A DNA stretch of 64,000 bases from Polyangiaceae bacterium (lineage in GTDB: Bacteria > Myxococcota_A > Polyangia > Polyangiales > Polyangiaceae), in assembly GCA_046351325.1 (NCBI GenBank), contig JAXLYR010000002.1:496334-560333 (forward strand), given 5' to 3'. A program made the position numbers and the translations under genes. The stretch's first letter is position 1. The number at the start of each line of letters is the position of its first letter. This document shows, one piece after another, positions 4,885 to 61,814 of this stretch. The notes under the pieces were generated by a model. The model saw only the letters and a list, made by a program, of their open reading frames with translations, was not told where the DNA came from and searched no databases.

Positions 4885-4963
4885 GTCATGATATCGACGT
4901 GACAGCGGGGGTCGAGACCCGCGCCGGACGTTGTCCGTAGAAGCGGAGATTCGGAGGAACTCG

Positions 4964-6343
4964 ATGCGCTCCCGTGTGTTGCTCTTGTCCATTCTCCTCG
5001 CAGCTTGTGACGCCGCCGTCGAACCCACACCGTCGGGCCCCAGCGGCACTGGCAGCGGTGCCAAGAGCCAAGTCACCTCATCCCCGCGCGCGCCGGCCTC
5101 GAGCGTCGCTCCACAGCCCAAGCCGGTGGTGAGCGTCTCCGCTCCAACGCCAGTGACGCCCCAGCCCGTCGTGAAGAAGACGCCGCCCGCGAACGTGACC
5201 GAGCTCGCTGCGAGCACCAATCACCTCGGGCTCGACGTCTACAAGCAGGCTCGCAAGGAGCCGGGAAATCTGGCCATGTCGCCGGTGAGCATAACGACCG
5301 CGCTCGCCATGACCTACGGCGGCGCCGCAGGCTCCACTGCCGACGAGATGAAGAAGACCCTCTATTTCCAGGGCTCGCAGGGCGACGTCATGAAGGGGAT
5401 GGGGGATTTGGCAGGTTGGGTCGAGAGCCCCGGGCGACCCATCACGATCCGGATTGCCAATCAGCTCTTCGGGGAGAAGACGTTCGGCTTCGAACCGGCA
5501 TATCTCGACGCGATGAAGGCCTCCTACGGGGCGCCGCTCGAGCCGCTCGACTTCAAGAACGACAGCGCGGGTGCGCTCTCGCGCATCAACGGTTGGGTCG
5601 AGGAGAAGACCGAGAAGCGCATCCAGAATTTGCTCGAGCCGCCGGCGATCAACTCCGGCACGCGGCTCGTATTGGTCAATGCGATTTACTTCTTGGGGAA
5701 ATGGTCGGTGCCTTTCCGCAAGGAGGCGACGAACGACCAGGATTTCTCGGTCACCAAGAGCGACAAGAAGCGCGTGCCGACGATGCACCAGACGGGGGGA
5801 TTCGACTACGCCGAAGTCGGGGACACGAGCGTTCTGCGGATGCCGTTCGGCGACAACACGGTCGCGATGTACATCTTCTTGCCGAAGAGCGTCGACGGCC
5901 TGGCCGCGCTCGAGACCTCACTCGACCCGGCGAAGCTCGATGAGCTCGTCAAGAAGGTGAAGCGCGAAGAGGTCGTGATCTCGCTGCCCAAGTTCGAAGT
6001 CGCCCCCGAAAAGGCCGTGAGCCTGGCCGCGATCCTGAAGAAGCTCGGGATGACGTCCGCGTTCGACCCGAAGCTGGCGGACTTCTCCAAGATGGCCGAC
6101 CCGAAGCAGGCCGAGGGGGGACTCTCGATCACCGACGTCTTCCACAAAGCCTTCGTGAAGGTAGACGAGGCGGGGACCGAGGCCGCAGCGGCGACGGCGG
6201 TCGTGGCGGCGCCCGCGGGCGCGGTGGCCACATCGGACATCAAACAATTCGCCGCGGACCATCCCTTCTTGTTCGTGCTCCGCGACGACACGACGGGGGT
6301 CGTGCTCTTCATGGGTCGCGTCATGGACCCGAGCGTGCACTGA
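4964..6343 (+). CDS. Serpin-family serine protease inhibitor, lipoprotein
   Basis: Serpin signature segments are present: NAIYFLGKWSVPF, the hinge EAGTEAAAATAVV, and C-terminal HPFLFVLRD. Lipobox LLAAC. GGAGG sits 8 nt upstream of the ATG at 4964. Confidence 0.9.
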   Translation: MRSRVLLLSILLAACDAAVEPTPSGPSGTGSGAKSQVTSSPRAPASSVAPQPKPVVSVSAPTPVTPQPVVKKTPPANVTELAASTNHLGLDVYKQARKEPGNLAMSPVSITTALAMTYGGAAGSTADEMKKTLYFQGSQGDVMKGMGDLAGWVESPGRPITIRIANQLFGEKTFGFEPAYLDAMKASYGAPLEPLDFKNDSAGALSRINGWVEEKTEKRIQNLLEPPAINSGTRLVLVNAIYFLGKWSVPFRKEATNDQDFSVTKSDKKRVPTMHQTGGFDYAEVGDTSVLRMPFGDNTVAMYIFLPKSVDGLAALETSLDPAKLDELVKKVKREEVVISLPKFEVAPEKAVSLAAILKKLGMTSAFDPKLADFSKMADPKQAEGGLSITDVFHKAFVKVDEAGTEAAAATAVVAAPAGAVATSDIKQFAADHPFLFVLRDDTTGVVLFMGRVMDPSVH

Positions 6344-15661: not shown

Positions 15662-16906
15662 ATGTTCAAGCGACGACAGCCCGATGTCCTCGTGGTCGGG
15701 GCCGGTCCAGTCGGCCTCGCGACCGCTCTCATACTGGCCAAACACGGCGTCTCGGTGGAGGTCATCGACGACGACGACGACACCAGCAGGCCCCCTTACA
15801 CCGTTGTCCTGCACCCTGCGACGACCGAAATCCTCGCTGGGCTCGGGCTCTCCGCCGAGCTGGCGACCCGCAGCACACCCGTCTCGCAGATTACAGTCTA
15901 CGACCGGGAGGAGCCGCGCGGGTCGCTGCGATTCGAGGATCACGGCGCTGGCGCGCCCGTGCTCACGTTGCCGTACGACCAATTCGTGGAGGTGCTCGAA
16001 CGGCGCGTTCGAGAGCACAAGATCCCCATTCACTTCCAACATCGGCTCTCCCAACTCGAGCTGATCGAACCACTTCGGATCAAGGCAGTCGTCGAGAAGT
16101 TGGGCGTCGACGGCGGTGGATACTCCATCCCCGACAGCCTGCTCGTCGTCGAGGACGAGATCGTCCTCGAGCCGAAGCTCGTAGTCGGCGCCGACGGATT
16201 CCACTCTACGGTGCGGCGGAGGGCGGGCATCGAGATGGATTCGATCGGCGCGCCGCACGCGTATGTCGAGGTCGAGCTCGAGACCCCGCTCGACGTCCAC
16301 GGCGAGGCCAGGGTCATCGTCGGCGACCAAACGACGGACGTGTTTTGGCCGGGCCGAGACGGCAAATGCAGGTGGGTGCTCGAGGTGAAGCCCGGCGACG
16401 TGCAGCCGCCGCGCTGGACGCCAGTGGGCACGCGCGAGGATCACGCAGTCCCGGCGGCTCTGGTCGAGCGCTACCTCGCGTCCCGCGCGCCGTGGTTCGG
16501 CGGCACTCGCGTCGAGCCGGACGATTACCTCGACGAGGTCCACTTCCAACCGGCGCTCGCGCGCGAGTTCGGCAAGGGCGTCGTATGGCTCGCTGGGGAC
16601 GCGGCGCACGTCACCGGCCCCATCGGGTCGCAGAGCCTCAACGCCGGCATCCAGGAGGGCAACGAGCTCGCGATGGCGGTGCTGCTCATGAAGCGCAACT
16701 TGGCGGACCTCAGCGTGCTCACGCACTACGACCGCGCAGGGCGCGAGCGCTGGCGGAGCCTGCTCGCGCTCGATTGGAGGCCCGAGCACGGCGCGCGCGC
16801 CGAACCGTACATTCGCGATCACGCCGCCGAGGTCCTGTCGGCCATTCCCGGCTCGGGCGAGGACTTCTGGCGACTCGCCCGCCAAGTCGGTATCGACGTC
16901 GTTTGA
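15662..16906 (+). CDS. FAD-dependent monooxygenase (UbiH/PheA-type aromatic-ring hydroxylase family)
   Basis: N-terminus DVLVVGAGPVGLATALIL. DG and GD motifs VVGADGFHSTVRR and WLAGDAAH. Confidence 0.85.
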   Translation: MFKRRQPDVLVVGAGPVGLATALILAKHGVSVEVIDDDDDTSRPPYTVVLHPATTEILAGLGLSAELATRSTPVSQITVYDREEPRGSLRFEDHGAGAPVLTLPYDQFVEVLERRVREHKIPIHFQHRLSQLELIEPLRIKAVVEKLGVDGGGYSIPDSLLVVEDEIVLEPKLVVGADGFHSTVRRRAGIEMDSIGAPHAYVEVELETPLDVHGEARVIVGDQTTDVFWPGRDGKCRWVLEVKPGDVQPPRWTPVGTREDHAVPAALVERYLASRAPWFGGTRVEPDDYLDEVHFQPALAREFGKGVVWLAGDAAHVTGPIGSQSLNAGIQEGNELAMAVLLMKRNLADLSVLTHYDRAGRERWRSLLALDWRPEHGARAEPYIRDHAAEVLSAIPGSGEDFWRLARQVGIDVV

Positions 16907-16910
16907 GGCG

Positions 16911-18105
16911 TCAGAACGGCGGGCGCGCGGCCTCGAGCAGCCAGCTCACGATCCGGTCACGGGCGACGACCTCGCGACCGGCGCGGCCGCGGACGTCGAC
17001 CTCACCTCGCTCGAGCTCGCGCGGTCCAATGACAATGATGTAAGGGATCTCGCGGGCGTGGGCGATCGCGACTCGCTTGCCGACGTTCTCGTCGCTCGCG
17101 TCGACGGCGGCCGCGAGCCCGTGCGCCGAGAGCTCTCGGCAGAGGACGCGCGCGGCCTCCTCCTCGCTCGCGCGCAGGGGCAGGACGACGACCTTGTCCG
17201 GTGAGAGCCACGCGGGCAGGCGCCCGCGGTGGTGCTCGAGGACGATCCCGAGGAAGCGCTCCAGGCTGCCGCAGAGGGCGCGGTGGAGCATCACCGGGTG
17301 TCGGCGCGCGCCCGAGGCGTCGGCGTACTCGACGCCGAAGCGCTCGGGGAGGAACGCGTCGAGTTGGATCGTCCCACACTGCCAAGACCGACCTGCGCGA
17401 TCGACGAGCGCGAGCTCGAGCTTCGGGCCGTAGAACGCGCCCCCGCCGGGAGAGACCTCGAAATCGAGGCCCGCGAGCCGCGCGCCCTCCGCGAGCGCGC
17501 GCTCCGCGCTGTCCCAGCTCTCGTCCCCACCGAGCCTGTCCGGCGGACGGCTCGCGAGCGCGACGTGGACCCGCTCGAAGCCGAACGCGCGGTAGAACTC
17601 GGGGATCGACGCACAGAAGCGGGCGATCTCCTCGACGGCTGCCTCCGGCGCCGAGAGGATGTGCCCGTCGTCTTGAACGAACTGTCGCAAGCGGAAGAGG
17701 CCCGCGAGCGCACCGCTCTGTTCGTTGCGATGACAGACGCCGAGCTCGGAGAGCCGAAGCGGCAAATCGCGATAGGAGAGCGACATGCGCCGCGCGATCG
17801 CGAGGTGTCCGGGGCAGCTCACTGGCTTGAGCGCGGACGCGAGGCCGTCCTCCTCACCGAGGACGAACATGTTCTCGCGGAAGTGCTGCCAATGACCGCT
17901 GCGCTCCCATATCGGCTGTCGGAGGAGCTGCGGACTCTTTACTTCGATGTAACCGTGTCGGCGCACATAGCGGCGATTGGCCTCTTCGAGCTCTCGCAAG
18001 AGCGAGAACCCGCGTGGGTGCCAAAACACCATCCCTGGAGCCTCCTCCTGGAAGTGGAAGAGCTCGAGGCGTTTACCGATGCTGCGATGATCGTCGTGAT
18101 CCATG
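16911..18105 (-). CDS. Threonyl-tRNA synthetase paralogue, N-terminally truncated (catalytic plus anticodon-binding domains only, about 398 aa)
   Basis: Collinear with E. coli ThrRS residues ~243-642 (DHRSIGKRLELFHFQEEAPGMVFWHPRGF; Zn ligands CPGH and CHRNE; anticodon domain KVVVLPL...GKRVAIAHAREIPYIIVIG). There is no TGS/N2 editing region. The ATG at 18105 is preceded by GGAGAG. Confidence 0.85.
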
Positions 18106-18364
18106 GCGGTCTCTCCGGTGGGTTTGTCGTCCCGAGGGCTCCGCGCGGACACGTGCACAAAAGCGAGCGCCCCGCGCGGCGAGTGCCGGCGGGGCGTTGT
18201 TCGTTCCTGTGGCGCGACCTCAGTCGGCGCACACGACGAGCACCCCGCCGTAGCGGGTAGTGGTCGTCGAGGGCGAGGCGTGAGGAGGCATGATGGCTTT
18301 ACGACGTCTCGCGCACCGCGAGCCTGACGAGGCTCGATCAGGGGTAGGCTGCGCCCGAGGAGCC

Positions 18365-19114
18365 ATGAACTCGAGGATTGGCGGGTCTCGCTATTGGGTA
18401 ATCGCGGCTGCGTGGTTCGTGGGGTGCTCGCCTTCACGCGGGCCCGAGGCTGGGCCTGATTCGCAGCCGTCGGCGACGAGCAGCGTCGAAGCGCGAGCCT
18501 CTGCGAGCGCGCCAGGGGCGACCACTTCGAGCGCGTCGAACACAGCGAGCGCTCCAATCCCCAGCGCTTCGCAGGCCGCGTCGACGGCCCTCGCAGAAAC
18601 GCCCCCGCCGAATTTCTCCGCGATCCCCGAGAAGCGCAAAGGAGCCTTCCCCGGTGTGCCCTTCAAGAAGGTTCGCGCCTTCGCGTTCGACCTCGAGGTC
18701 AACGGTCGCCCCGTCTGTTCGATGCCCCTCGACCCGGATGGCACGCTCTGCAGCACGGTCGCGCGACCCGGCGTCGAGCTGAGCGCCGAGCAGACGAAGT
18801 CGCTCCTCGCGTTGCTCAAGCAATCCTCGACCTACGGCGGCGGGTCGAAGTGCTTTCTGCCCCACCACGGCTTCGTCTTCTACGCGGAGGACGACACGCC
18901 CGTCGCAGAGATCTCGCTCTGCTTCATGTGCGAGATGATCCTGCCGTTGCCTGCGATCTCCGGCGCGACGCCGAGTGGCGAGGGTGAGGGACTCGTCGGC
19001 CTCTCGGAGAAGGGCACGAAGTCGCTGCGTAAGCTCTGCAGCGAGCTCGGCTTGCCGAAGTGCGACGCGCGCACCCCCGACGACTACTCGGGTGGGCTGC
19101 TCGATCCTCCGTGA
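18365..19114 (+). CDS. Hypothetical lipoprotein
   Basis: MNSRIGGSRYWVIAAAWFVGC-S lipobox, a Ser/Ala-rich linker, then a Cys-containing domain. Confidence 0.55.
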   Translation: MNSRIGGSRYWVIAAAWFVGCSPSRGPEAGPDSQPSATSSVEARASASAPGATTSSASNTASAPIPSASQAASTALAETPPPNFSAIPEKRKGAFPGVPFKKVRAFAFDLEVNGRPVCSMPLDPDGTLCSTVARPGVELSAEQTKSLLALLKQSSTYGGGSKCFLPHHGFVFYAEDDTPVAEISLCFMCEMILPLPAISGATPSGEGEGLVGLSEKGTKSLRKLCSELGLPKCDARTPDDYSGGLLDPP

Positions 19115-19148: not shown

Positions 19149-21575
19149 TCAATCGGCGAGGTGGCGCCCGCGAACGTCGACGGTCTTGTAGCGACCGAGG
19201 AACTCGCGCGTGCTCGCCAGCGATTTGATGTGGTCGAGGACGTTGCCCTTCGGGGTCGCGTACTCGAGGAAGAGGTTGTCGTCGGTCGCGATGATCGGGC
19301 CGCCGTTGTCTTTCGCGACGTCGTCGCAGAGCCGCGCGAGGTCTTCGTCGGAGGCGACCATCTCGTCGAGCATGTCGAGCAGGTGCCTGTCCCCGAGCAC
19401 CGAGTGCATGCGCGCGTCGCCTTCCAGCGCTGTCAGCCGCGCGCGCGAGGCGACGAGCGGATGGCGGCTCGCGACCAAGATGCCCTGCGCGCCGCCCTCG
19501 AAGAGCGCCACGTGGGGGAACACGTGCATCAGCGTCCGGACGATCGTCGCGAGCTCACGCGGGCGGATGTGGTGCAGCTGCACCCACTGCTGAAGGACGC
19601 CCTCCTCGTAGAGCCTGCTCTTCGCGAGCTCGTAGAACTCGGCGGAGTAGAGGTTGCTCGCGCCGGCGAACCACACGCTGGTGAGCTCGATCGTGATGAG
19701 GTCGTACGGATCCTTCGCGAGGAGGAGCACGTTGCGCCCGTCGTTCAGCGTGAGGTTCGTGCGCGGGTCGGCGAGGCCGTCGAGCTCGGGGTTTCTGAAG
19801 TGCGTCTTCGCGGCCTCGACAATCGCGGGGGAGATCTCGGCGACGTCGATGCGCTCGAACGGGTAGGCGGCGACGGTGCTCAGCGTCGTGCCGGTGCCGA
19901 GCCCGATGACGAGCGCGCGCCGCTCCTTCTCCAAGAAGAGGGAAGGGAAGTGCGCGAAGCGTCGCTGCGCGCTCATCTCGGGGCCGTTGTCGCCTTGGAA
20001 TTTGCCGTTCGTCAGCAGCGTGAGGATGCCGTCCTCGCGCCTGACGACGGTGGTGACGCCGCCGTGCACGTCCTCGCGAACGAAGAGGATCTCCTTCGGC
20101 GGGGGACCGTGCGTGAAGTAGACGTTCACGCCGTTGGTGAGGCGCGCGAGATCCCAACGCGGCGCGATCACGCAGGCGAGCGCGGCGAGTCCACCGAGGA
20201 CCGCGATCTTGCGACGGGTGGAGCGACCTTCGAAGCCAGTCTCGGGTTGCGGGGGCGTGACGTTCGACGGCGCAGGCTTCGAGCTGTCGCGCAGCGCGAG
20301 GCCCGCGAGCACCACGAAGGCGACCACGATCGCGATGAGCGTCCGCTGTGAGCCGAGGAGCGGCAGCACGACGTAGCCCGTCAGGATCGACCCGAGGATG
20401 GTGCCCGCAGTGTTCGCGACGGTGAGGCGCCCGACGTCGCGCGCGACCGATGCGCGGCGCGCGACACGGCCGAGCAGGATCGGGAATGTCATGCCCATGT
20501 AGATCGTGGGCACGACGAGGATCATGAAAGCAGCGAGGCCGCGGCAGAGCTCGCGACCGGCCCACGAGTTCACGTACCAACCCGCCAGCGCGAAAAAGCG
20601 TGGGAGCTGATCCCAGAGCGGCGTCGCCAGGGACAACGCGAGCGCGCTCGCCGCGAACGTCCACGCGAGCGCGGCGCCCCAACCCGTGCGATCGGCGACC
20701 GAGGGCGCGCGCGCAGCGCCGATGCCGAGGCACACGAGGAACACCGCCAGCATGAGCCCGAACGCGTAGGCGCTGTTGCCGATGAGCAGCGAGAGGAGGT
20801 GGGTCTCGACGACCTCGGTGGCGAAGACCAGAAAGCCCGACGCGAACGCGTAGAGCAGGACCGAGCTCGGGAGCGGATCGGCTGCGTCGCTTTTCGCCGC
20901 TGCTTTGTCGGGGCTCGCTGCGTCGCTGGTGGTTGTCGAGGCCGCCGCGCCGACAGGTGCGCTCCGCATCCCGAGCACGATCGCGCTGAGCCCGAGCGCG
21001 ACGTTGATGAGCGCTGCCGCGCGCATCGTGCCGTGGATGCCGAGCGTCGGCAGGATGAGGTACGCCGCGAGCATCGAGCCGAGCGCGCCTCCCACGGTGT
21101 TGACGGCGTAGAGCCGAGGCAGCGCGCGATCGCTCTCGCTCGAGGTGCCGACCACGCGGCTCAACATCGGCAGCGTCGCGCCCATGCACGCCGTCGGGAA
21201 CACGATGACGATGAACGTGAGCGCCCCGCGGATCGCGGTCGTCGTCGTGAGCGAGCCCGACGCGGGGATGAGCTTCAAATAGACGGTGGTGATCCCGTCG
21301 AAGAACCAAGGCGTCGCAGCGCAAACGAGCCCGACGAGGACCTCGGCGACGCCGTAGCCGACGAGCGGTTTGTGGATGCGGGACGCGACGCGCCCCCCGA
21401 GGTGCGCGCCGAGCGCGAGGCCCGCCATGAACGCGCTGAGCACGGTGCTGATCGCGTACGCGGTCGCGCCGAAGATCGTCGCGAGCACCTTGGAGAAGGC
21501 GACCTCGTAGAGAAGCCCGGTGGCTCCGGAGACGAGGAACATGAACGAGACGAGGGCGAGGTTCTTACGGGCCAA
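19149..21575 (-). CDS. Fused MFS-like membrane domain and spermidine synthase-like (polyamine aminopropyltransferase fold) protein
   Basis: About 12 predicted TM helices, starting at MARKNLALVSFMFLVSGATGLLYEVAFSKVL. The C-terminal SpdS-like methyltransferase fold contains VIGLGTGTT and ITIELTSVW. Confidence 0.85.
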   Translation of the reverse strand: MARKNLALVSFMFLVSGATGLLYEVAFSKVLATIFGATAYAISTVLSAFMAGLALGAHLGGRVASRIHKPLVGYGVAEVLVGLVCAATPWFFDGITTVYLKLIPASGSLTTTTAIRGALTFIVIVFPTACMGATLPMLSRVVGTSSESDRALPRLYAVNTVGGALGSMLAAYLILPTLGIHGTMRAAALINVALGLSAIVLGMRSAPVGAAASTTTSDAASPDKAAAKSDAADPLPSSVLLYAFASGFLVFATEVVETHLLSLLIGNSAYAFGLMLAVFLVCLGIGAARAPSVADRTGWGAALAWTFAASALALSLATPLWDQLPRFFALAGWYVNSWAGRELCRGLAAFMILVVPTIYMGMTFPILLGRVARRASVARDVGRLTVANTAGTILGSILTGYVVLPLLGSQRTLIAIVVAFVVLAGLALRDSSKPAPSNVTPPQPETGFEGRSTRRKIAVLGGLAALACVIAPRWDLARLTNGVNVYFTHGPPPKEILFVREDVHGGVTTVVRREDGILTLLTNGKFQGDNGPEMSAQRRFAHFPSLFLEKERRALVIGLGTGTTLSTVAAYPFERIDVAEISPAIVEAAKTHFRNPELDGLADPRTNLTLNDGRNVLLLAKDPYDLITIELTSVWFAGASNLYSAEFYELAKSRLYEEGVLQQWVQLHHIRPRELATIVRTLMHVFPHVALFEGGAQGILVASRHPLVASRARLTALEGDARMHSVLGDRHLLDMLDEMVASDEDLARLCDDVAKDNGGPIIATDDNLFLEYATPKGNVLDHIKSLASTREFLGRYKTVDVRGRHLAD

Positions 21576-21608: not shown

Positions 21609-22169
21609 GTGGAGCGGAGCGAGGACTTCGACGAGCTCGGCTGGGCTGCGCACCCCGTGTCGCCGTGGGAGCGACGCGACGCTTTCACGCTGTTCTCCGC
21701 GGATGCTCACGCGCGTCTCGAGCGAGGCCCGCTCGCGGGCCACGCGGCGCGACTCTTCGGCGCGACGCTCTCGCTGAGCCCGGAGAAATCGTTCCCGCGA
21801 GGCTCGCAGCCGCGCGCGGACGCGGCACACGTGTCGATCGCCGGCCCGTTCGACGGCCGCGCCGAGGTTCGTCTGATGCCGATCGATCGCGCTGCCGCGC
21901 TCCGGATCGCGGCGAGGAAGGTCGCTGAAGACATGGGCGGCGCGGGGATGGACGTGCTCGTGGCCCGCGCGCGCACGATCATCCAAGTCCAGGCATTGCC
22001 CGAGTCCGCCGCGAGCAGTCTCGCGATCGCGGCCGTCTTCGCGTCCGTCACGCTCGCGCCGATCCTGCCGCCTCTCGAGGACGTCCTCTTCGCCATCAAG
22101 GGCGCGCGCGAGCGATTGACATTGCTTACACGATTGTCGACGTTGCCGGCCTGCAAAAAGCCGCCTTGA
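21609..22169 (+). CDS. Hypothetical protein, candidate gene. The tail of ORF 20799..22169 that lies outside the antisense shadow.
   Basis: GC3 is about 88% in this frame and the composition is protein-like (…FAIKGARERLTLLTRLSTL). The stop is 35 bp before the ung-fusion gene. Start is uncertain (GTG at 21609 or a later ATG). Confidence 0.3.
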   Translation: MERSEDFDELGWAAHPVSPWERRDAFTLFSADAHARLERGPLAGHAARLFGATLSLSPEKSFPRGSQPRADAAHVSIAGPFDGRAEVRLMPIDRAAALRIAARKVAEDMGGAGMDVLVARARTIIQVQALPESAASSLAIAAVFASVTLAPILPPLEDVLFAIKGARERLTLLTRLSTLPACKKPP

Positions 22170-22203
22170 CGATCGCGGGCTCACCCCGAGAGCATGCGCC
22201 GCG

Positions 22204-23382
22204 ATGACAGCCCCGAAGCGTCGATCAAAGCCAGCGGATGCGAAGCCGGCCACACGCAGCGCGGCCGCAGAATCTCCCAAGAAGTCTGCGGTCGCGGGCC
22301 TTCGTCGCCCGCGCCAGGAGCGCGACTGGAAGTCGACGTTCCAGCTGCTCGTCGCGATGGCGCTCGCGGGCGCTGCGATGCAGGCGGCCGCGCGCAACGC
22401 GCTGCTCAAGCTCTTCGAGCGCTGGCCCGACGCGGCCTCGCTCTCGCGCGCCGACGTGAAGGCCGTCGAGCGCGTGCTGCGCCCGCTCGGACAAGCTCGT
22501 CAGAACGCAGAGGCCGCGATCCTCCTCGCGTCCGATCTGGTGGCGCGCTTCGGCGGCGAGGTCCCCGCGTCTGCCGAGGAGATCGCCTCGCTGCCAGGCG
22601 TCAACGGGACCGTCACCAACGTCGTCGTGCGACGCGCGCACGGCGTCGTGCCCGGGGCTCCGACGAACGAAGCTGTAAGCGAGGACGAGGAGGGCGCTCC
22701 GAACTCGCGCGTCGACGCGTCTCGGTTGCCGAGCGACTGGGTCGCCGCGCTCGGTCCAGCGCTCGACGCGATCGACCTCGAGACGACCCTCTCGCGCGTC
22801 GCGGCCGAGCGCGCGACCGGCGCTGTGTTTCCGCCTGCCGCCGACGTTTTCGCTGCGTTTCACCACACGCCTTTCGCCAAGACGCGCGTGCTCGTCCTCG
22901 GCCAAGACCCCTATCCGACGCCGGGCCTCGCGCACGGCCTCGCGTTCTCCGTGAAGCGCGGCGTGAAGCTCCCGCAGTCGCTCGTGAACATGTTCCAGGA
23001 GCTCAAAGACGATTTCGGCTGTGAGCTCCCGAAGGACGGCTATCTCGTGCCTTGGGCGCATCAGGGTGTCTTGCTCCTCAACGCGCTGCTCACCGTGCGC
23101 GCGTCCGAGCCCGGCTCGCACAAGCTCTTCGGGTGGCGAGAGCTCACCGACGAGGTGATCCGCGCGCTCGACGCTCGCGAGGAGCACGTGGTGTTCGTGT
23201 TCTGGGGGACCCAAGCCCGCGCGAAGGCGAAGCTCGTCGTGAGCGGTCGGCACACGATCATCGAAGGAGCTCACCCGAGCCCCATGTCGGTGAAGGCGTT
23301 CCGCGGCAGTCGGCCCTACTCCAAAATCAACGCGGCGCTCTCCGCGCACAACCAACCGGAGATCGATTGGGCGCTGGCTTGA
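22204..23382 (+). CDS. ung: Uracil-DNA glycosylase (family 1) with an N-terminal Lys/Ala/Pro-rich tail and an HhH-like extension
   Basis: The C-terminal half carries UNG motifs (VLVLGQDPYPTPGLAHGLAFSV, GVLLLNALLTVRASEPGSH, HPSPMSV). The N-terminal ~170 aa have a basic tail KRRSKPADAKPATRS…SPKKS and an HhH-like LPGVNGTVTNVV. Confidence 0.85.
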   Translation: MTAPKRRSKPADAKPATRSAAAESPKKSAVAGLRRPRQERDWKSTFQLLVAMALAGAAMQAAARNALLKLFERWPDAASLSRADVKAVERVLRPLGQARQNAEAAILLASDLVARFGGEVPASAEEIASLPGVNGTVTNVVVRRAHGVVPGAPTNEAVSEDEEGAPNSRVDASRLPSDWVAALGPALDAIDLETTLSRVAAERATGAVFPPAADVFAAFHHTPFAKTRVLVLGQDPYPTPGLAHGLAFSVKRGVKLPQSLVNMFQELKDDFGCELPKDGYLVPWAHQGVLLLNALLTVRASEPGSHKLFGWRELTDEVIRALDAREEHVVFVFWGTQARAKAKLVVSGRHTIIEGAHPSPMSVKAFRGSRPYSKINAALSAHNQPEIDWALA

Positions 23383-43049: not shown

Positions 43050-46077
<3,028 letters not shown>

Positions 46078-56333: not shown

Positions 56334-59174
56334 CTACGCGAGCGACGGGACCGCGTCGTTCTTCGCGAGCTCGACGCTCGCGCCGGGGACGGTCGTGGCC
56401 CAGGCACGCGCCGCGTCGAGCACGCGCGCCGAGGTCACCCTGTCGAGCAGCGAGACGTCGCCGAGGCCGATCGCGAGCTTCACGCACGCGCGAGTTGCCT
56501 CGAACGGCCGAGGCCAAGCGCGAGCACGTGCGACGCCCGCGCGATCGAGCGCGCCGAGCAACGCGAGGGCGCGACCGCGCGCCCAGCCGAGCGACTGCGA
56601 GACGCTGCCGTCGCGTGTGGCGCGCAGCGTGACGACGAGCCAGCTCGCGTGGCGGCGGTGCAAGGGTGGGGGAGTGAAGAGGCGCTCGACGTCGCCCGTG
56701 GACGCGAGCTCCCAAGCCTCGAAGAGCTCCTCGGTGAGGGTCGCGACGCCGCACGCAGGGAGCGCAGCGGACATCGAGCGCGTGGGCGCGGTCGGAGTGA
56801 GCACGCCCGTGAGCTCCGCGGCGACCGCGCGTTCGAGCGCGACGGGCTCACGAAAATCCCAGCCCGCCCAATGGGCGAAGAAGCCCTCGAGCCGCGGGTT
56901 CGAGCCGGGCGTCGCGGCGACCATCACGAGCCACGCGAGGCTCGGGAGCGTGCCGAACGCGGCGCTGTCGAGCCCTCGCGCGCGGGCCCAGCGCTTGACG
57001 AGGCGCGCGAGCTCACGGAGGTGAGGTTCGCGCTCGAAGAGGGCGGCGAGCGCCTCGGCGTCGCTCACGGCGCTGAGCGCGAGCGCGGCAGGCTCTGCGA
57101 GCTCGAGGCGGCGCGCGACCGCTTCGGAGACTGCGAGCGGCGCGCAGTCGACGAGCGCGAGATCCACGTCGAGCCCGCTCGCGAGGGAGAGCTCGAGGCC
57201 GGGGACGCGCGCGCCGACGATGTGGCGCGGGGGCTCGCGGAGCGCGAGCCCGCTCCTCTCGAGCGCGGCGGAGACGGACTCTGCGACGCGGTGCGGATCG
57301 AGGTCGCGGCCTGTGGCGACGAGATCGAGATCGCTGTCCGCGAGCGCGCAGTCGAGCGCCTGCGAGCCCGTCACGAACACGCCTGCGTCGGGAAGGCCCG
57401 CGCGGATCACCTCCGCGACGCGGGTCGCGCTGACCGAGGCGCGCAGCGTGGACGCCGAGGGTCGACAAAGCCCGGCCCGACAAAGTCCGGGTCGCTCGTC
57501 GAGCCACGTGAGGCGAGCGCGAGGCCCGAGCTCGAGCCTCGCCCGAGACTCCATCGGACCGCCCGCGCGCGATGACAAAAATGTAAGCTCGCGCACCGCG
57601 AGCGGCTGCGACGTGAAGGCCCTGGCGACGGGCGCGACGGCGGAGAGCTCGCCGCGGCCGAGCGTGAGGTGCGGGGAGCTCTCGGCGCGCGCGCGGCACG
57701 CGGGCAAAGGCGCGCGCAGCAAGGCCGTGAGCTCGCGCCAGCGATCCGCAGGGAGCGCGGGCAAATGCACGGTGGGCGCGCCCTTGTCGTGTTCGAAAAT
57801 CGCGGGCTCGCCGAGGGTCGCGTCGAACGGCGCGACACGCCGAGCCTCGTCGAGGAGCAGGCGCGCTGCGGCCTCGAAGCTCGACTCGGGGACGAAGCCG
57901 AAGACGACGTTGACGTGAGGTGGCCAGCGGCTCGCCTGCGGATCGTGGAGCGCGCGCGTTCGCTCGATCGCGGCGCAGGCCTCGGTCGGTGGGAGCCACG
58001 CGAGCGCGGTGCTCGCCGTGGACGGGAGCTCGAGCGTCGCGCGCGCCTCGAGCGGCGCGAGATCGGCGACGACCGCCCCGTGATCGGACGCGAAGAGGGG
58101 CGGAGCACCGGGCTCGATCGGCTCGGTGGCGGCGAGCTCGGCGCGCTTCACGGTGAGCTCGCGCGAGGTGAAGAGCACGCGATCGAGGCGGCGAGCCTCG
58201 CCCGAGAGCGACGAGAGCGCGGCGAGCGTGTTCGCCGTCGGATCGAACGTCGCGCCGTCGCCACGCGGATCACCGAACACGCGCTCGGTCGAGGTCCACG
58301 CGTCGGCGAGCCCGAGGCTCGCGGCGAGCTCGGGATCGCCGTCGTTGAAATCGCCCGCGACGATGACGTCGCTCGAGAGCGACGCGATCGCGGAGGCGAG
58401 GAGTTCGCGCTCGCGCCGCCGATGCTCGCGCGCCTGCTCGCGGTGGTCGCTGCTCAGGTGGAGCGCGACGAAGGCGACGCGGCGCGGAGGCGCGGCGCCG
58501 CCCCATTCGATCACGGCGGCGACGAGCGCTTTGTGGCTCTTGCGCGCGCGCGGCCCATCGGCGCCGAGATCGCGGTAGCCGAGCTCGAGGATGGGCCACC
58601 GGCTGAGCAGCACGAGGCCACATTGTTCGACGTCGTCGCGCGAGGGACCCACGTGGTAACGCGAGCGCACCCAGCCCGCGCCGAGCAGCAGCTCGAGGAG
58701 CGGGAGCTCGACCTCTTGAAGCGCGATGAGATCCGCGTCGAGCCCTTCGAGGAGCTCGAGCTGATGGGGCCGGCGACGCTCGGTCGCGAGCCGATCGGCG
58801 TCGTAGCGATCCCACAGCGTGTTCCACGTGACGACGCGGAGCTCGCCGTTCGACGCGGGCGCCATCGCCGTAGGCTCCGGCGACGCGAGCACGACGCGAG
58901 GCTCGAAGAAGGTCTGGAGCTCGAGCTTCGCGCGAGCGCGGCCTGCTTCGGTGCGATCGAGGATGTCGAGGCCCGCGCGCCGATCCCACACGGTGACGCC
59001 ATCGGCTTCGAACGCGACGACGCGATGCCACGGGATGTCCCCGCCGGCGACGAAGTCGCTGAACGCGACGCGCTTCAGCGACGCGCCGTGCACGTCGAGC
59101 CCGATCGTGAACCGCGCGGCGTCGAGCGAGGCGTCCCACCGGATCCGGTTGTAAATCTCCTCACTGGTCCGCAT
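56334..59174 (-). CDS. Multidomain putative RNA end-processing/repair protein: MJ1316(DUF504)-like, EEP nuclease/phosphatase, 2H phosphoesterase-like, pol-beta nucleotidyltransferase
   Basis: N-terminus MRTSEEIYNRIRWD…IPWHRVVAFEADGVTVWDRR (MJ1316-like). EEP motifs VVTWNTLW, ALQEVE, AGDFND and FASDHGAVV. 2H-like HVNVVFGF and HLTLGRG. NTase GVFVTGSQALDCALADSDLDLV. The start was moved to 59174, giving a 14-nt overlap with the upstream gene. Confidence 0.8.
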   Translation of the reverse strand: MRTSEEIYNRIRWDASLDAARFTIGLDVHGASLKRVAFSDFVAGGDIPWHRVVAFEADGVTVWDRRAGLDILDRTEAGRARAKLELQTFFEPRVVLASPEPTAMAPASNGELRVVTWNTLWDRYDADRLATERRRPHQLELLEGLDADLIALQEVELPLLELLLGAGWVRSRYHVGPSRDDVEQCGLVLLSRWPILELGYRDLGADGPRARKSHKALVAAVIEWGGAAPPRRVAFVALHLSSDHREQAREHRRRERELLASAIASLSSDVIVAGDFNDGDPELAASLGLADAWTSTERVFGDPRGDGATFDPTANTLAALSSLSGEARRLDRVLFTSRELTVKRAELAATEPIEPGAPPLFASDHGAVVADLAPLEARATLELPSTASTALAWLPPTEACAAIERTRALHDPQASRWPPHVNVVFGFVPESSFEAAARLLLDEARRVAPFDATLGEPAIFEHDKGAPTVHLPALPADRWRELTALLRAPLPACRARAESSPHLTLGRGELSAVAPVARAFTSQPLAVRELTFLSSRAGGPMESRARLELGPRARLTWLDERPGLCRAGLCRPSASTLRASVSATRVAEVIRAGLPDAGVFVTGSQALDCALADSDLDLVATGRDLDPHRVAESVSAALERSGLALREPPRHIVGARVPGLELSLASGLDVDLALVDCAPLAVSEAVARRLELAEPAALALSAVSDAEALAALFEREPHLRELARLVKRWARARGLDSAAFGTLPSLAWLVMVAATPGSNPRLEGFFAHWAGWDFREPVALERAVAAELTGVLTPTAPTRSMSAALPACGVATLTEELFEAWELASTGDVERLFTPPPLHRRHASWLVVTLRATRDGSVSQSLGWARGRALALLGALDRAGVARARAWPRPFEATRACVKLAIGLGDVSLLDRVTSARVLDAARAWATTVPGASVELAKNDAVPSLA

Positions 59175-60939
59175 CGTCGTCGAGCCCCCCGGTGCTGTCG
59201 GTCGCCTCGGCGGCGCCGTCACGAGCCGCGGCCGCGCGATAGACGAGGCGGTCTGCGTCGCCTGGAAACGGCGGGCGACAGCGCGCGATCTGTTCGTCGA
59301 GGACGTCGACGGGGACCGCGTGTGCGCGGGTCGCGTTGCGCGCCCCGAGCAGCGCGCGCGGCGTGAGGAAGACGACCTGCCAGACCTGCGCGCCGAGGCG
59401 ATGCGCGACGCTCTCGGGGAGCTTGCGCTGCTGCGGGATCAGGCTGGTCGCGTCCCAGATCACGTCGCGCCCGCTCGCGAGCGCGCCGTGCAGTTTCTCG
59501 AGGGCCTCCCCGAGGACCGCGGCGTTCTCCGATTGATCGGCACGCGCACCGCGGCTCTCGCGGAGAGCGTCGAGCGCGATGACGACCGACGGGCGCTCTC
59601 GCGTGTCGCTGGGGTCGTGCGCCGCGAGCGAGCTCTTGCCGCTGCCCGAAGGGCCCACGAAGAGCGTGAGCCGCGGGCGGCGCGCGGAGCGCATGCGAAA
59701 CGTCGCTTGGATCGCCTCCGGCGCGCTCACGAGGGCGCCGCGCACCCAACCCGATCGGGCCTCGGCCCAGCACTGCTCGGCGATGCGCGCGTCGGCCATC
59801 GCGTGGATGCCAGCGAACTCCGCGCGAACCGCGCGGCGGAGCTCACCGATCGGCTCGCGCGCGAGCAGGCCGTGCTCCTCGGCGAGGAGCTCCGACCACG
59901 CGATCGCGTCGACGGCCTGCGCGTCGCTCGCGTGCGCGGCGCGAGCGACCGCGTGCGCGACGCCGAGGTCTGCGCCGAGCGACATCCAGCGAAGGCCGCG
60001 CGGCGTGGGGTTCTCGGGTTCGGGCGACGCGATCTTCGGCGCGAGCGCTGCGACGTCCGCGATGCGTCGCGCGAGCCGCGGACCGAGCGCGACGGCGAGC
60101 TCCATCATGAGCTCGCCGCGTGGCAGGTCGGGGAGGAGCGCGGCGAACGCGGCCTCGACGCGCGCGTCACCGAACCGGCCGAGGGCGTCGAGCCCTGCGT
60201 GAACTGCGGAGAGTCGCGTGTCGTCCGCTTCACGAGGAGGTCGCGCGAGCGTCGGGGGCAAGAGGTCGAGGAGCGTGCGCGCGGGCACGAGCTCACCGCC
60301 GCGCGCAGCCCAGAGCGCGGCGCGCGGACCGCGTTCATTTTCGATGAAGGGCCCGCGCATCCAGTGCTCGTCGGTCTGGACGTGGTCGCGTCGAACCCAC
60401 TTCGCGACGCTCGCGGTGAAGTCGTCGCGCGAGAAGCCGCTCGCGAGCCGAACGACGTAGCCCTCTTGTCGCGCCGGATCGATCTTCAGGCGGCGGAGCG
60501 CGTTCTCCTGGAATACACCTCGAAAGAGGACGGGTGGCGTCGGCAACCCGAGGTCCGCGGCGAAGCGCACGGTCTCGTCCCACGAGAGCGCGTCGTCACC
60601 GTTCCAGACGCTGAAGGCATAGAAGAAGCTCTCGAGATCCGCGTACGCGATGGAGTGCCGCGCGTGGACGTTCTCACCCGAGATGCGGAAGCCCGCGGGG
60701 ATGCGATCGCGGATGCGCCCGTGCAGGGCCTTCACCCAGGCGCGCGACGGGTGGTGCGCGGAGTCCGGCGAGCGCGCGTGGAGCCCGTCGGAGTAGAGCG
60801 TGGTGTTCTCTCCGTCGAGCTTCTCCGTGACGACGACCTCGCGGCCTTTGAAGCTCGCGAGATCGACAAGCCGGACATCGTCCGCGGTCGCGCCCGGCGA
60901 CCATGGCAGGTGCGGGGTTCGAGGGTAGCGGACTCGCAT
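59161..60939 (-). CDS. RNA ligase (ATP-dependent, KxDG nucleotidyltransferase) fused to P-loop polynucleotide-kinase-like domain
   Basis: N-terminus YPRTPHLPWS…VVTEKLDGENTTLY (motif I). EGYVVR (motif IV) and AKWVRRDH (motif V). The C-terminus has Walker A FVGPSGSGKSS and the AAA_33/Pnk-like VIWDATSL. Confidence 0.8.
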   Translation of the reverse strand: MRVRYPRTPHLPWSPGATADDVRLVDLASFKGREVVVTEKLDGENTTLYSDGLHARSPDSAHHPSRAWVKALHGRIRDRIPAGFRISGENVHARHSIAYADLESFFYAFSVWNGDDALSWDETVRFAADLGLPTPPVLFRGVFQENALRRLKIDPARQEGYVVRLASGFSRDDFTASVAKWVRRDHVQTDEHWMRGPFIENERGPRAALWAARGGELVPARTLLDLLPPTLARPPREADDTRLSAVHAGLDALGRFGDARVEAAFAALLPDLPRGELMMELAVALGPRLARRIADVAALAPKIASPEPENPTPRGLRWMSLGADLGVAHAVARAAHASDAQAVDAIAWSELLAEEHGLLAREPIGELRRAVRAEFAGIHAMADARIAEQCWAEARSGWVRGALVSAPEAIQATFRMRSARRPRLTLFVGPSGSGKSSLAAHDPSDTRERPSVVIALDALRESRGARADQSENAAVLGEALEKLHGALASGRDVIWDATSLIPQQRKLPESVAHRLGAQVWQVVFLTPRALLGARNATRAHAVPVDVLDEQIARCRPPFPGDADRLVYRAAAARDGAAEATDSTGGLDDDADQ

Positions 60940-60995
60940 GGCGGCACTCTCGACGGCTCGATGACGAGCAGGCTGACGACCTCGGAAACGAAGAC

Positions 60996-61814
60996 TCAGG
61001 TTTGGATTCGCCGCTCGACCCTGCCGCCGCGCAGCACGGCGATCTCACCCTCGGCCATGGGCTCCCAGGGCTCGTCGCTGAGCGGCACGCTCGCCGCGAG
61101 CGCGACCTCTTGCTCGTCCGCGTGCTCGACGGAGACCCCGACGAGCGGGACGCCGTCCGCGGCCGCGCTGCACGTGCGACAGAGCAAATGCAGGCCTGGC
61201 GGGCGCATGGTGCCGTCGGACTGCGTTCGCTTGTGCGCGTGGGCGATGATCAACTCGCCGTCGCTGTAGAGGAAGTTCGCAGGCCCCAGCGTCCGAAGCT
61301 CGCGCGCGAACGGCGCGAGGCGCTCGAGGCGTGCGTCGAGCGCAGGCAGCTCGTCGCGACTGCAAGCTTCGTAGAGCGGCGCGAGCTGCTCGAGCAGCGC
61401 GCAGAACGCGTGCTCCGAGTCCGTCTCACCAACGGGTCGAAAGCGGCGCGCGGGGAAGCGCGCGTCCTGTTCGATGCCGGGCACCATCCCGTTGTGCGCG
61501 AACACGTGCATGCGACCGCCGAGCTCGCGCGCGAAGGGCTGCGTGTTGCAGAGCCTCGGCTTGCCCTGCGTGGCCTTGCGCACGTGCGCGATCGTCAGCG
61601 TCGCGCGCGGCTGGTACTCCTCGAAGAACTTCACCCAGCGGCTGTGCGCCGCGGCCTCGGGCGCGCGATGGATGAGCACGTCGCGATCGTCCGAGAGGCT
61701 CAGCCCCCAGCCGTCCGCGTGGGGGCCCGTCTCTCCGCCGTGCCGCGCGAGCTCGTCGAGCGAGAGCCGTACCGTCGTCGGATGCCGCGCCGCGATCGCG
61801 AGGAGCTCGCACAT
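60996..61814 (-). CDS. Class II (Ntn) glutamine amidotransferase-like protein
   Basis: Begins MCELLAIA, the catalytic Cys2 of class-II GATases (YafJ-like). Confidence 0.75.
   Translation of the reverse strand: MCELLAIAARHPTTVRLSLDELARHGGETGPHADGWGLSLSDDRDVLIHRAPEAAAHSRWVKFFEEYQPRATLTIAHVRKATQGKPRLCNTQPFARELGGRMHVFAHNGMVPGIEQDARFPARRFRPVGETDSEHAFCALLEQLAPLYEACSRDELPALDARLERLAPFARELRTLGPANFLYSDGELIIAHAHKRTQSDGTMRPPGLHLLCRTCSAAADGVPLVGVSVEHADEQEVALAASVPLSDEPWEPMAEGEIAVLRGGRVERRIQT

Follow-up and report, generated by a model that had tools for sequence, protein, structure and literature searches.

We found that a 64,000-nucleotide (64-kb) stretch of the Polyangiaceae bacterium assembly GCA_046351325.1 (contig JAXLYR010000002.1), which as a whole is called the window here, carries a thrS gene encoding a genuine, N-terminally truncated threonyl-tRNA synthetase (ThrRS). 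The gene is preceded by a predicted transcription attenuator whose leader peptide contains a run of Thr codons. Taken together, the results described below suggest that the short ThrRS is probably an inducible, editing-less back-up enzyme gated by this attenuator. The truncation had been pointed out in an earlier reading of the DNA that was made from the letters alone, without database searches (the sequence-only reading), and we examined its proposals along with the rest of the locus.

Concerning the coding region, the only Pfam matches in the gene product were tRNA-synt_2b, the core of those aminoacyl-tRNA synthetases (aaRSs) that belong to class II, and HGTP_anticodon. The NCBIfam model TIGR00418 (thrS) was matched with 414.5 bits (cut-off 383.65) over model positions 171-548 of 565, and in a search of solved structures residues 5-383 of the window protein aligned with residues 243-620 of the Escherichia coli ThrRS (E = 1e-110). 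These matches agree with the earlier proposal that the open reading frame (ORF) is collinear with the catalytic and anticodon-binding domains of ThrRS. The N-terminal boundary of the short ThrRS coincides with that of the E. coli deltaN construct (1EVK/1EVL), which starts at residue 242. This fragment of the E. coli enzyme (residues 242-642) has been used as an active enzyme in the literature and is also the protein used in inhibitor complexes. A deltaN ThrRS has null editing activity (PMC4787780). The start had been placed at the boundary of the catalytic core behind a good ribosome-binding site, and we arrived at the same position, with the deltaN boundary matched and GGAGAG located 6 nt upstream of the ATG. 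The coordinate given for this end of the gene needed a small correction, as it had been set at 18105, one base beyond the ATG, which begins at 18104, and the strand (minus) had been omitted.

No Pfam match to the TGS (N1) or editing (N2, tRNA_SAD) domains was obtained in the protein or in the in-frame upstream extension, which was followed to 18557. A tblastn search with a query comprising TGS and N2, run on the 64-kb window and on the loci of seven short relatives, gave no match either, so that an upstream extension encoding N1/N2, which had been raised as a possibility, was not found. In 11 related loci the start was ATG in every case, and in 10 of them it lay 4-5 codons ahead of a conserved DHR. 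A GGAG(A) Shine-Dalgarno (SD) sequence was present at a constant distance from the ATG, and in-frame stops were found 20-68 codons upstream. As the start, the SD sequence and the upstream in-frame stops recur and the N-terminal domains were not found, the N-terminal truncation is genuine, as had been claimed. A mis-called start or a pseudogene could be ruled out by the conserved family, the retained core residues and the recurring start. The accompanying statement that the upstream sequence is non-coding in this frame held only in part: the extension contains no recognizable domain, but the region does hold a leader ORF rich in Thr codons and a terminator.

Residue conservation was examined in an alignment of 116 family members, the E. 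coli core and 78 full-length representatives drawn from a search of 1.84 billion cluster representatives. Among the 53 columns that are near-invariant (at least 93% in the 78 full-length ThrRSs), 51 are kept in the window protein, the exceptions being M332V and Q541K (E. coli numbering is used for residues of the core). The zinc triad C334/H385/H511 is conserved as C97, H148 and H274. This triad, together with H309, R363, E365, R375, Q381, D383, Y462, K465, Q484, R520 and E600, is kept in the window protein, each residue being present in at least 112 of the 116 members, and G463, Q479 and T482 are also kept in the window protein. Outside the zinc triad, nearly all of these positions are the same in all 116 members. 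The residues contacting A76 of the tRNA and the anticodon are conserved as well. The sequence-only reading had described the zinc ligands as retained in the motifs CPGH and CHRNE. The ligands are indeed conserved, but CHRNE is motif 2 (R363/E365) and not part of the zinc site.

Other changes specific to the family were few (V376L, G378Q, L445A and a His at position 586), and Y313F is present in 115 of the 116 members. M332V is the one universal and exclusive mark of the short family, this residue of the Thr pocket being Val in 116/116 family members and Met in all 78 full-length representatives and all 40 resident housekeeping enzymes. The residue pattern is indicative of purifying selection for aminoacylation, and not of a decaying fragment or a re-purposed scaffold. 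It points to a catalytically competent, editing-less ThrRS. As far as can be judged from the protein sequences, the short ThrRS is a naturally occurring counterpart of the deltaN construct from E. coli, and the family is conserved across Myxococcota.

The best 120 database relatives were all two-domain proteins of 368-426 residues with 54-76% identity to the window protein, which places the short ThrRS in a conserved family. Named sources among these 120 were Polyangiaceae metagenome-assembled genomes (MAGs), many Sorangium strains with complete genomes, Myxococcaceae and Pyxidicoccus xibeiensis. We also scanned one genome per species with the window protein, a scan that provides named examples and not a census, so that its counts are lower bounds. 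Among the matches listed, Nannocystis exedens DSM 71, Citreicoccus inhibens, two Sorangium chromosomes and further MAGs also carry the short form, and the remaining matches listed were ordinary full-length thrS genes of proteobacteria and spirochaetes, with the N-terminal domains encoded directly upstream. Short ThrRSs are also present in Candidatus Providencia siddallii (an endosymbiont; 410 residues) and in a Solirubrobacteraceae MAG. For the sister short form P0125, the only named match in the protein search was a Solirubrobacteraceae MAG, the nearest named actinobacterial short form.

The sequence-only reading had regarded the gene as a paralogue whose position should be settled by phylogeny. 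In neighbour-joining trees of the ThrRS core (50 resamplings), the short family with V332 was monophyletic in 50/50 resamplings, and grouped together with the resident housekeeping ThrRSs in 0/50, which sets it apart from them. Several metagenomic clusters of ThrRSs with approximately 400 residues that retain M332 joined the V332 family in only 20/50. As a separate observation, PLSDB contains 714 plasmid records with thrS-like genes, 566 of them in Klebsiella, all with less than 60% identity to the short ThrRS. The best match there (Thioclava) is a full-length thrS, and plasmid-borne ThrRS copies seem common.

Full-length ThrRSs of myxobacteria were retrieved with a bait sequence, and only the database matches obtained with it count as evidence. 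The bait retrieved 120 Myxococcaceae proteins of 642-643 residues with TGS, tRNA_SAD, core and anticodon domains. By exact look-ups, the P. xibeiensis assembly GCA_024198175.1 was found to contain both a 400-residue short form and a 642-residue full-length ThrRS. The full-length gene is followed by rpmI, rplT, pheS, pheT and an HU/IHF gene, and the short gene is located on a different contig among unrelated genes. In P. xibeiensis the short form is a second ThrRS beside the canonical thrS. The core identity between short and full-length ThrRSs was only 41-46%, and that between the short form and ThrRSs of beta- and gamma-proteobacteria was 45-50%. The low core identity and the separate grouping in the trees indicate that the short form of P. 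xibeiensis is an old, separately evolving second ThrRS, and they rule out a recent duplicate of the resident thrS. The suggestion that the gene is a paralogue is supported to this extent in a relative, and paralogue status in this MAG and in Polyangia genomes is likely. On a different point, position 489, a known hot spot of borrelidin resistance that is Leu in E. coli, is occupied by Ala in 40/40 resident full-length ThrRSs of Myxococcaceae (P0319-P0358), and at position 488 these have Leu in 37 and Met in 3.

We then turn to the region upstream of the gene. The upstream regions of 12 loci including the window were aligned, and three further loci (L091-L093) were kept out of model training. 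All 15 distinct family loci examined have a leader with a Thr run, a hairpin formed by regions 1 and 2 (1:2), and a GGCGGGG sequence that is pairable with the 5' arm of a GC-rich terminator. A leader ORF could be called in 11 of the 12 aligned loci. These ORFs comprise 23-28 codons with 4-8 Thr codons, at least 3-6 of which are consecutive, and examples of the peptides from other loci are MLARLALTTTTTTRSGG..., MNYGFTATTTTTTRSGG... and MLRRATTATTTTTLPGG... In L011 the Thr run is present and the start of the leader lies outside the extract; L091-L093 also have the Thr run. In the 12 aligned loci the run is followed by R-x-G-G, and the Gly-Gly codons read GGCGGGG. This sequence repeats that of the terminator 3' arm, and can therefore pair with the terminator 5' arm. 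Region 2 thus has two alternative partners. One is region 1, in which the Thr codons and the CCCGC that ends the Thr run pair with GGCGGGG plus GUCGUGUG (the 1:2 helix), and the other is the terminator 5' arm (the antiterminator).

A GC-rich hairpin lies between the leader ORF and the gene in all loci, and the cores of its arms, GCCCCGCC and the last bases of the partner (GGC), are invariant in 12/12 loci. In the predicted folds, the SD sequence is also contained in a hairpin in 12/12 loci, with an upstream CUCC(GUC) pairing with (GAC)GGAG. In L011 the SD sequence is AAGGA and its partner is UCCUU, so that both sides have changed. This putative SD-sequestering hairpin may constitute a second, translational layer of control. 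The positions of these elements in the window are listed in Table 1.

Table 1. Positions in the window of the short thrS gene, of selected codons and of the predicted regulatory elements upstream
Feature	Position	Strand	Basis or detail
Short thrS coding sequence, 397 aa + stop	16911..18104	minus	ATG 18104-18102, stop 16913-16911
tRNA-synt_2b, class II aaRS core, residues 90-292	17229..17837	minus	Pfam, 1.8e-42
HGTP_anticodon, anticodon-binding domain, residues 304-390	16935..17195	minus	Pfam, 1.1e-16
Cys97 codon, zinc ligand (E. coli C334)	17814..17816	minus	Alignment
His148 codon, zinc ligand (E. coli H385)	17661-17663	minus	Alignment
His274 codon, zinc ligand (E. coli H511)	17283-17285	minus	Alignment
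Val95 codon (E. coli M332, lines the Thr pocket)	17820..17822	minus	Family signature
SD sequence GGAGAG of short thrS	18111..18116	minus	6 nt 5' of ATG
Terminator-to-start spacer, predicted SD-pairing hairpin	18105..18167 (approximate limits)	minus	SD paired in 12/12 loci
Predicted intrinsic terminator (regions 3 and 4)	18156..18196	minus	Folds; GCCCCGCC invariant in 12/12 loci
Terminator 5' arm, CGCCCCGCCGGC	18196..18185		
Terminator loop	18184..18181		
Terminator 3' arm	18180..18168		
CUCGCUUUUGUG, following the terminator 3' arm	18167..18156		
Region 2, GGCGGGG (18249..18243, leader Gly-Gly codons) + GUGCUCGUCGUGUG	18230..18249	minus	Folds
Region 1, Thr codons ACG ACC ACT ACC (18267..18256) overlapping CCCGC (18257..18253)	18253..18267	minus	Sequence
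Leader ORF, 23 codons + stop, MPPHASPSTTTTRYGGVLVVCAD*	18220..18291	minus	Thr-codon ORF; R1 match
Match of covariance model R1	18159..18270	minus	E = 8e-18

Folding of the free transcripts gave the 1:2 helix together with the terminator in 12/12 loci. When the nascent RNA ending with region 3 was folded and the Thr run was masked as if covered by a ribosome, GGCGGGG paired with CCCCGCC (2:3) in the minimum free energy fold in 12/12 loci, and without the masked ribosome region 3 was largely free in 10/12. RNAalifold, applied to the whole alignment, selected the same 2:3 helix. In the named structures 86-87% of the cells were paired, compared with 36-58% when the partners were slid.

A covariance model, R1, was built from the 12 leaders and searched over 1.46 Mb. 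Matches in this sequence were found only directly upstream of short thrS genes, and none was found near 74 full-length thrS genes, including the housekeeping gene of Pyxidicoccus. All three loci outside the training set were matched, 45-65 nt 5' of the gene, with E values of 1e-14, 2e-14 and 1e-7. In Rfam, no family reached its gathering score in the window, and no relevant match was obtained at E values up to 10 in 18050-18400. Control of the short thrS by a T-box or by an operator of the E. coli type was accordingly set aside, as neither had an Rfam match. We predict that the upstream element is a classical ribosome-mediated (leader-peptide) transcription attenuator that is absent from Rfam. 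The suggestion in the sequence-only reading that the gene might be a stress-responsive paralogue fits with a Thr-codon attenuator upstream and with the specificity of R1 for short thrS genes.

Two more distant metagenomic short ThrRSs that keep M332 are also preceded by leaders with a Thr run. In L089 (3815-4000) and L090 (3820-4000), the leaders end in six and four Thr codons, respectively, followed by hairpins and U runs with a sequence unrelated to the Myxococcota element, and one of the two shows the same predicted switch. L089 has an analogous attenuator architecture with a different sequence. Control by a Thr leader may be older than the Myxococcota family, or it may have evolved more than once.

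Concerning the surroundings of the gene, the window has ordinary chromosomal genes, which encode a dienelactone hydrolase, a convergent flavin adenine dinucleotide (FAD) monooxygenase, a lipoprotein-like protein, a fusion of a major facilitator superfamily (MFS) domain with spermidine synthase, a uracil-DNA glycosylase (UDG)-family protein, an M14 peptidase, Ser/Thr kinases, methylmalonyl-CoA mutase and a serpin, among others. The convergent pair formed with the FAD monooxygenase gene, noted in the sequence-only reading, is seen in the annotation of the window. No biosynthetic core (polyketide synthase (PKS), non-ribosomal peptide synthetase (NRPS) or beta-lactone genes) was found in the 64-kb window, and no biosynthetic cluster or transporter linked to short thrS was found in the window or in the loci of the relatives, in line with the earlier remark that the gene does not obviously lie inside a biosynthetic cluster. 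In the 12 oriented loci, the short thrS is the sole gene common to all, and the neighbourhoods are mutually unrelated. In six loci (L005, L006, L013 and L014 from Sorangium, L009 and L092), the gene directly downstream of the short thrS or convergent with it encodes a cytochrome P450. Redox genes adjoin it elsewhere too, namely those for the FAD monooxygenase in the window (15662-16906) and for a Pyr_redox_2 protein in L003. As no single family is conserved, this adjacency may be due to chance.

Several other features of the region were observed. A UDG-family gene occurs within a few kb of thrS in three otherwise unrelated loci (window 22120-23382, plus strand; L008 5098-5784; L090 8521-9102), probably by coincidence. 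The thrS concerned is the housekeeping gene in Pyxidicoccus, whereas the window and L090 have the short form there. A plus-strand ORF (18290-19114) has no Pfam match, and its mechanical start, the ATG at 18290, overlaps the ATG of the leader ORF on the opposite strand. A later ATG at 18365 is likelier. With it, the product would have the lipoprotein-like signal MNSRIGGSRYWVIAAAWFVGCS, and about 73 nt would be available to divergent promoters. Further away, two large adjacent genes on the minus strand (56337-61044) resemble an RNA repair pair, one encoding a 1034-residue protein with MJ1316 RNA-end recognition, endonuclease/exonuclease/phosphatase and 2'-5' RNA ligase (2H) domains, and the other a 627-residue RNA ligase and AAA_33 kinase-like protein. 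The window also encodes the bacterial serpin (4892-6340, plus strand; E = 2e-110), a 973-residue multihaem cytochrome with MtrC/MtrF-like and PKD-like domains (43053-45971, minus strand), and the 808-residue protein in which the MFS-like membrane domain is fused to the spermidine synthase domain (19152-21575, minus strand).

From the architecture of the leader and the family relationships, we infer the attenuation logic, the physiological trigger and the fate of mischarged tRNA as follows. When Thr-tRNAThr is plentiful, the ribosome would read through the leader, the CCCGC/GCGGG hairpin (1:2) would capture region 2 behind it, and the GC-rich terminator would form, ending transcription ahead of the short thrS. 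When Thr-tRNAThr is scarce, owing to Thr starvation or to a housekeeping ThrRS that is inhibited or insufficient, the ribosome would stall on the first Thr codons and cover region 1. Pairing between the GGCGGGG of region 2 and the terminator 5' arm would then become possible, and RNA polymerase would enter the short thrS. The SD-sequestering hairpin may further damp translation. The additional short enzyme would raise the capacity for charging tRNAThr. The full-length enzyme could act in trans, through its N2 domain, on any Ser-tRNAThr made by the short one and remove it, in analogy to the T1 and T2 enzymes of Anabaena.

A number of results weigh against this proposal. No compensatory change was found in any helix pair by covariation tests on the 12 loci, because the helix cores are invariant, so that the support for the attenuator structure comes from conservation, complementarity and architecture. 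About half of the loci, when folded at full length, still had a terminator of greater stability than the antiterminator. A clear U-tract is present in the window, L001, L010 and L015, and a weak one in several other loci. Neither a sigma-70-like promoter nor a clear SD sequence was found ahead of the leader ORF, and the leader transcript may be leaderless. The only genome in which a co-occurring full-length thrS was demonstrated is that of P. xibeiensis. Moreover, a ThrRS without an editing domain cannot discriminate serine from threonine, and inducing such an enzyme at the moment when the Ser/Thr ratio is at its worst looks risky for fidelity.

The sequence-only reading had also raised the possibility of an immunity determinant of the borrelidin or obafluorin type. 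Its premise, that the known immunity ThrRSs are editing-less, is doubtful; the numbering by which S464 of ObaO equals E. coli G463 indicates a full-length protein, and ObaO appears to be full length. The G463S change protects ObaO and also protects against borrelidin, changes at L489 and H309 lead to a 300-1000-fold higher Ki, and the self-immunity copies (ObaO and those of borrelidin producers) depend on G463S or on fourth-site changes (equivalents of H391/F539/Q566/L567). In the short family, G463 is present in 116/116 members and L489 is Leu in 107 and Met in 9, which corresponds to the sensitive type at these two positions, and F461 is unchanged. With these residues, and with no cluster in the window or in the relatives' loci, a role in self-immunity was not borne out. 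In a broader form, the short enzyme would be an inducible, drug-insensitive ThrRS that confers intrinsic resistance to ThrRS inhibitors of the borrelidin/obafluorin class, whether these come from neighbours or are produced by the same cell. Inhibition of the housekeeping enzyme would lower Thr-tRNAThr, and the attenuator would respond to this drop, so that the idea is a special case of the back-up role and not its opposite. We consider it a tentative possibility. M332 corresponds to human M411, one of 18 residues contacting borrelidin, is among those altered in borrelidin-resistant archaeal ThrRSs, and shifts to accommodate obafluorin. The strict partition between Val in the family and Met in the full-length and resident enzymes is in agreement with this, as are Y313F in nearly all members, the regulatory logic reported for a tryptophanyl-tRNA synthetase (TrpRS) that is auxiliary, resistant to an antibiotic and under attenuation, and the induction of Streptomyces coelicolor thrS2 in the WblC antibiotic-stress regulon. 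On the other hand, G463 and L489, the positions at which resistance has been defined by experiment, have residues of the sensitive type, no linked cluster or transporter was seen in the window or the relatives, the Met-to-Val change is mild, and Thr leaders also precede the sister short forms, in which M332 is retained.

Taking into account the loss of editing and the predicted induction exactly at a shortage of Thr-tRNAThr, one could also regard the enzyme as deliberately proofreading-free. Made upon exhaustion of Thr-tRNAThr, it would bring about a regulated, adaptive Thr-to-Ser mistranslation through a Thr-codon attenuator conserved across Myxococcota, with Ser-tRNAThr, or Thr scavenged at very low concentration, keeping the ribosomes moving during starvation or predation. 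The absence of the editing domains, the null editing of deltaN ThrRS (PMC4787780) and the family-wide alteration of a pocket residue (M332V) would fit, but the zinc-based pocket for Thr/Ser is otherwise intact, a co-resident full-length enzyme could edit in trans as T1 of Anabaena does (PMC4787780), and we regard this idea as unlikely. We also think it improbable that the short form is the only, housekeeping ThrRS of this Polyangiaceae genome, with fidelity handled elsewhere. Editing-less sole ThrRSs do exist, as in the case of the Candidatus Providencia siddallii enzyme, catalytic-only yeast mitochondrial and Aeropyrum enzymes were among the structural matches, the demonstration of a full-length copy concerns P. 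xibeiensis, and attenuation can govern an essential synthetase (pheST). Nevertheless, the short family coexists with the canonical thrS in Pyxidicoccus, the short gene is never beside rpmI-rplT-pheST and has a neighbourhood that differs from genome to genome, and the hosts have large, non-reduced genomes (12-16 Mb in Sorangium). Very improbable in our view is a ThrRS-derived enzyme for secondary metabolism that would work either as an amino acid:carrier-protein ligase or by supplying a tRNA-dependent biosynthetic route. New roles have been described for truncated paralogues of aaRSs (PMC4787780), and P450 or other redox genes adjoin the short thrS in several loci. However, the anticodon-binding domain and the contacts to A76 and the anticodon are conserved, no carrier protein, NRPS or PKS is located nearby, there is no conserved gene partner, and the control signal would be the supply of Thr-tRNAThr for the ribosome.

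Editing-less ThrRSs are known from mitochondria, crenarchaea and reduced genomes. To our knowledge, their tolerance has been considered restricted to mitochondria, endosymbionts and systems with a separate editor, and we know of hardly any attenuators described in Myxococcota. Our literature search, whose coverage was incomplete, found no paper describing the short ThrRS clade or its Thr-run attenuator. What is new is the combination of a conserved clade of natural deltaN ThrRS paralogues, its occurrence in Myxococcota with large genomes, and a conserved Thr-run attenuator outside Rfam. An editing-less ThrRS family under strong purifying selection in free-living bacteria with large genomes, apparently wired to a sensor of charged tRNAThr, provides a system in which accuracy can be set against charging capacity under amino-acid shortage or synthetase inhibition. 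Editing in trans by the resident enzyme, and the effect of M332V on inhibitor sensitivity or Ser/Thr discrimination, can be studied in the same system. The attenuator adds to Myxococcota an unannotated and easily searchable cis-regulatory RNA, a Thr leader. For genome mining, the results also call for caution, as a second, truncated aaRS alone is no marker of a self-resistance gene.

Among known systems, one close in logic is TrpRS1 (trpS, SCO3334) of S. coelicolor, reportedly described by Vecchione and Sello in 2010 as an auxiliary, indolmycin-resistant TrpRS under ribosome-mediated attenuation. Like the short thrS, it is a second synthetase copy that is turned on when charged tRNA falls, via a leader peptide rich in cognate codons. 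It differs in the amino acid, in having had no editing domain to lose, in that resistance has been measured, and in its host (Actinobacteria versus Myxococcota). An inducible second thrS is also present in S. coelicolor (thrS2, SCO3778; 56-65 fold in the WblC regulon), and in S. lividans a leader peptide, thrL, with a hairpin has been proposed from RNA-seq upstream of the thrS gene SLIV_19410. These cases share with ours an inducible second ThrRS gene and a proposed Thr-dependent leader peptide upstream of a thrS. Unlike the short-thrS leader, the S. lividans thrL has only two Thr codons and an unclear terminator, and SLIV_19410 is, from its map position only, a putative orthologue of thrS2. 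In Bacillus subtilis, a second ThrRS gene, thrZ, is reported to be silent under normal conditions and to be induced by a limitation of threonine or of ThrRS activity (Putzer and co-workers, 1992). The short thrS resembles it in being a second copy that is predicted to be switched on by such a limitation. However, thrZ encodes a full-length enzyme, and its control is exerted by a T-box, which reads uncharged tRNA and for which the short thrS has no Rfam match.

With respect to the leader itself, pheST of gamma-proteobacteria is an established case of aaRS genes behind an attenuator, and for trpS and leuS of Streptomyces attenuators have been predicted. The E. coli thrL and the pheST attenuator correspond to the short-thrS leader in being classical leader-peptide attenuators, the former with runs of Thr codons and the latter with an aaRS as the target. 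There is no sequence relation between the E. coli thrL and the short-thrS leader, which has no match to the Rfam Thr_leader family and precedes a synthetase paralogue instead of a biosynthetic operon. ObaO and the ThrRSs of borrelidin producers are, like the short ThrRS, second copies with changes in the inhibitor pocket. They are located in or near a cluster and carry G463S or fourth-site changes, in contrast to the short form, which has no cluster and in which G463, F461 and L489 are unchanged. Anabaena also has a duplicated ThrRS with impaired editing that is linked to stress: T2 is expressed under stress, and fidelity is rescued in trans by T1 (Rubio et al. 2015, PMC4787780). Unlike the short ThrRS, T2 keeps its N-terminal domains, editing being crippled by an insertion, and it is regulated by Zur and zinc without attenuation.

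As for the protein, the deltaN ThrRS (242-642), the yeast mitochondrial MST1 and the catalytic ThrRS of crenarchaea (ThrRS-cat) all share with the short ThrRS the two-domain structure, the same N-terminal boundary and the lack of editing. The split system of crenarchaea (ThrRS-cat with ThrRS-ed) could be rejected as a model, since the core of the short ThrRS is of the bacterial type (370-394 bits to bacterial enzymes versus 154 bits to Aeropyrum 3A31), a full-length enzyme is present in a relative, and no free editing domain was found nearby. DeltaN is a laboratory construct, and MST1 and ThrRS-cat are the sole enzymes of reduced or split systems, whereas the short ThrRS is a natural bacterial protein with its own predicted regulation.

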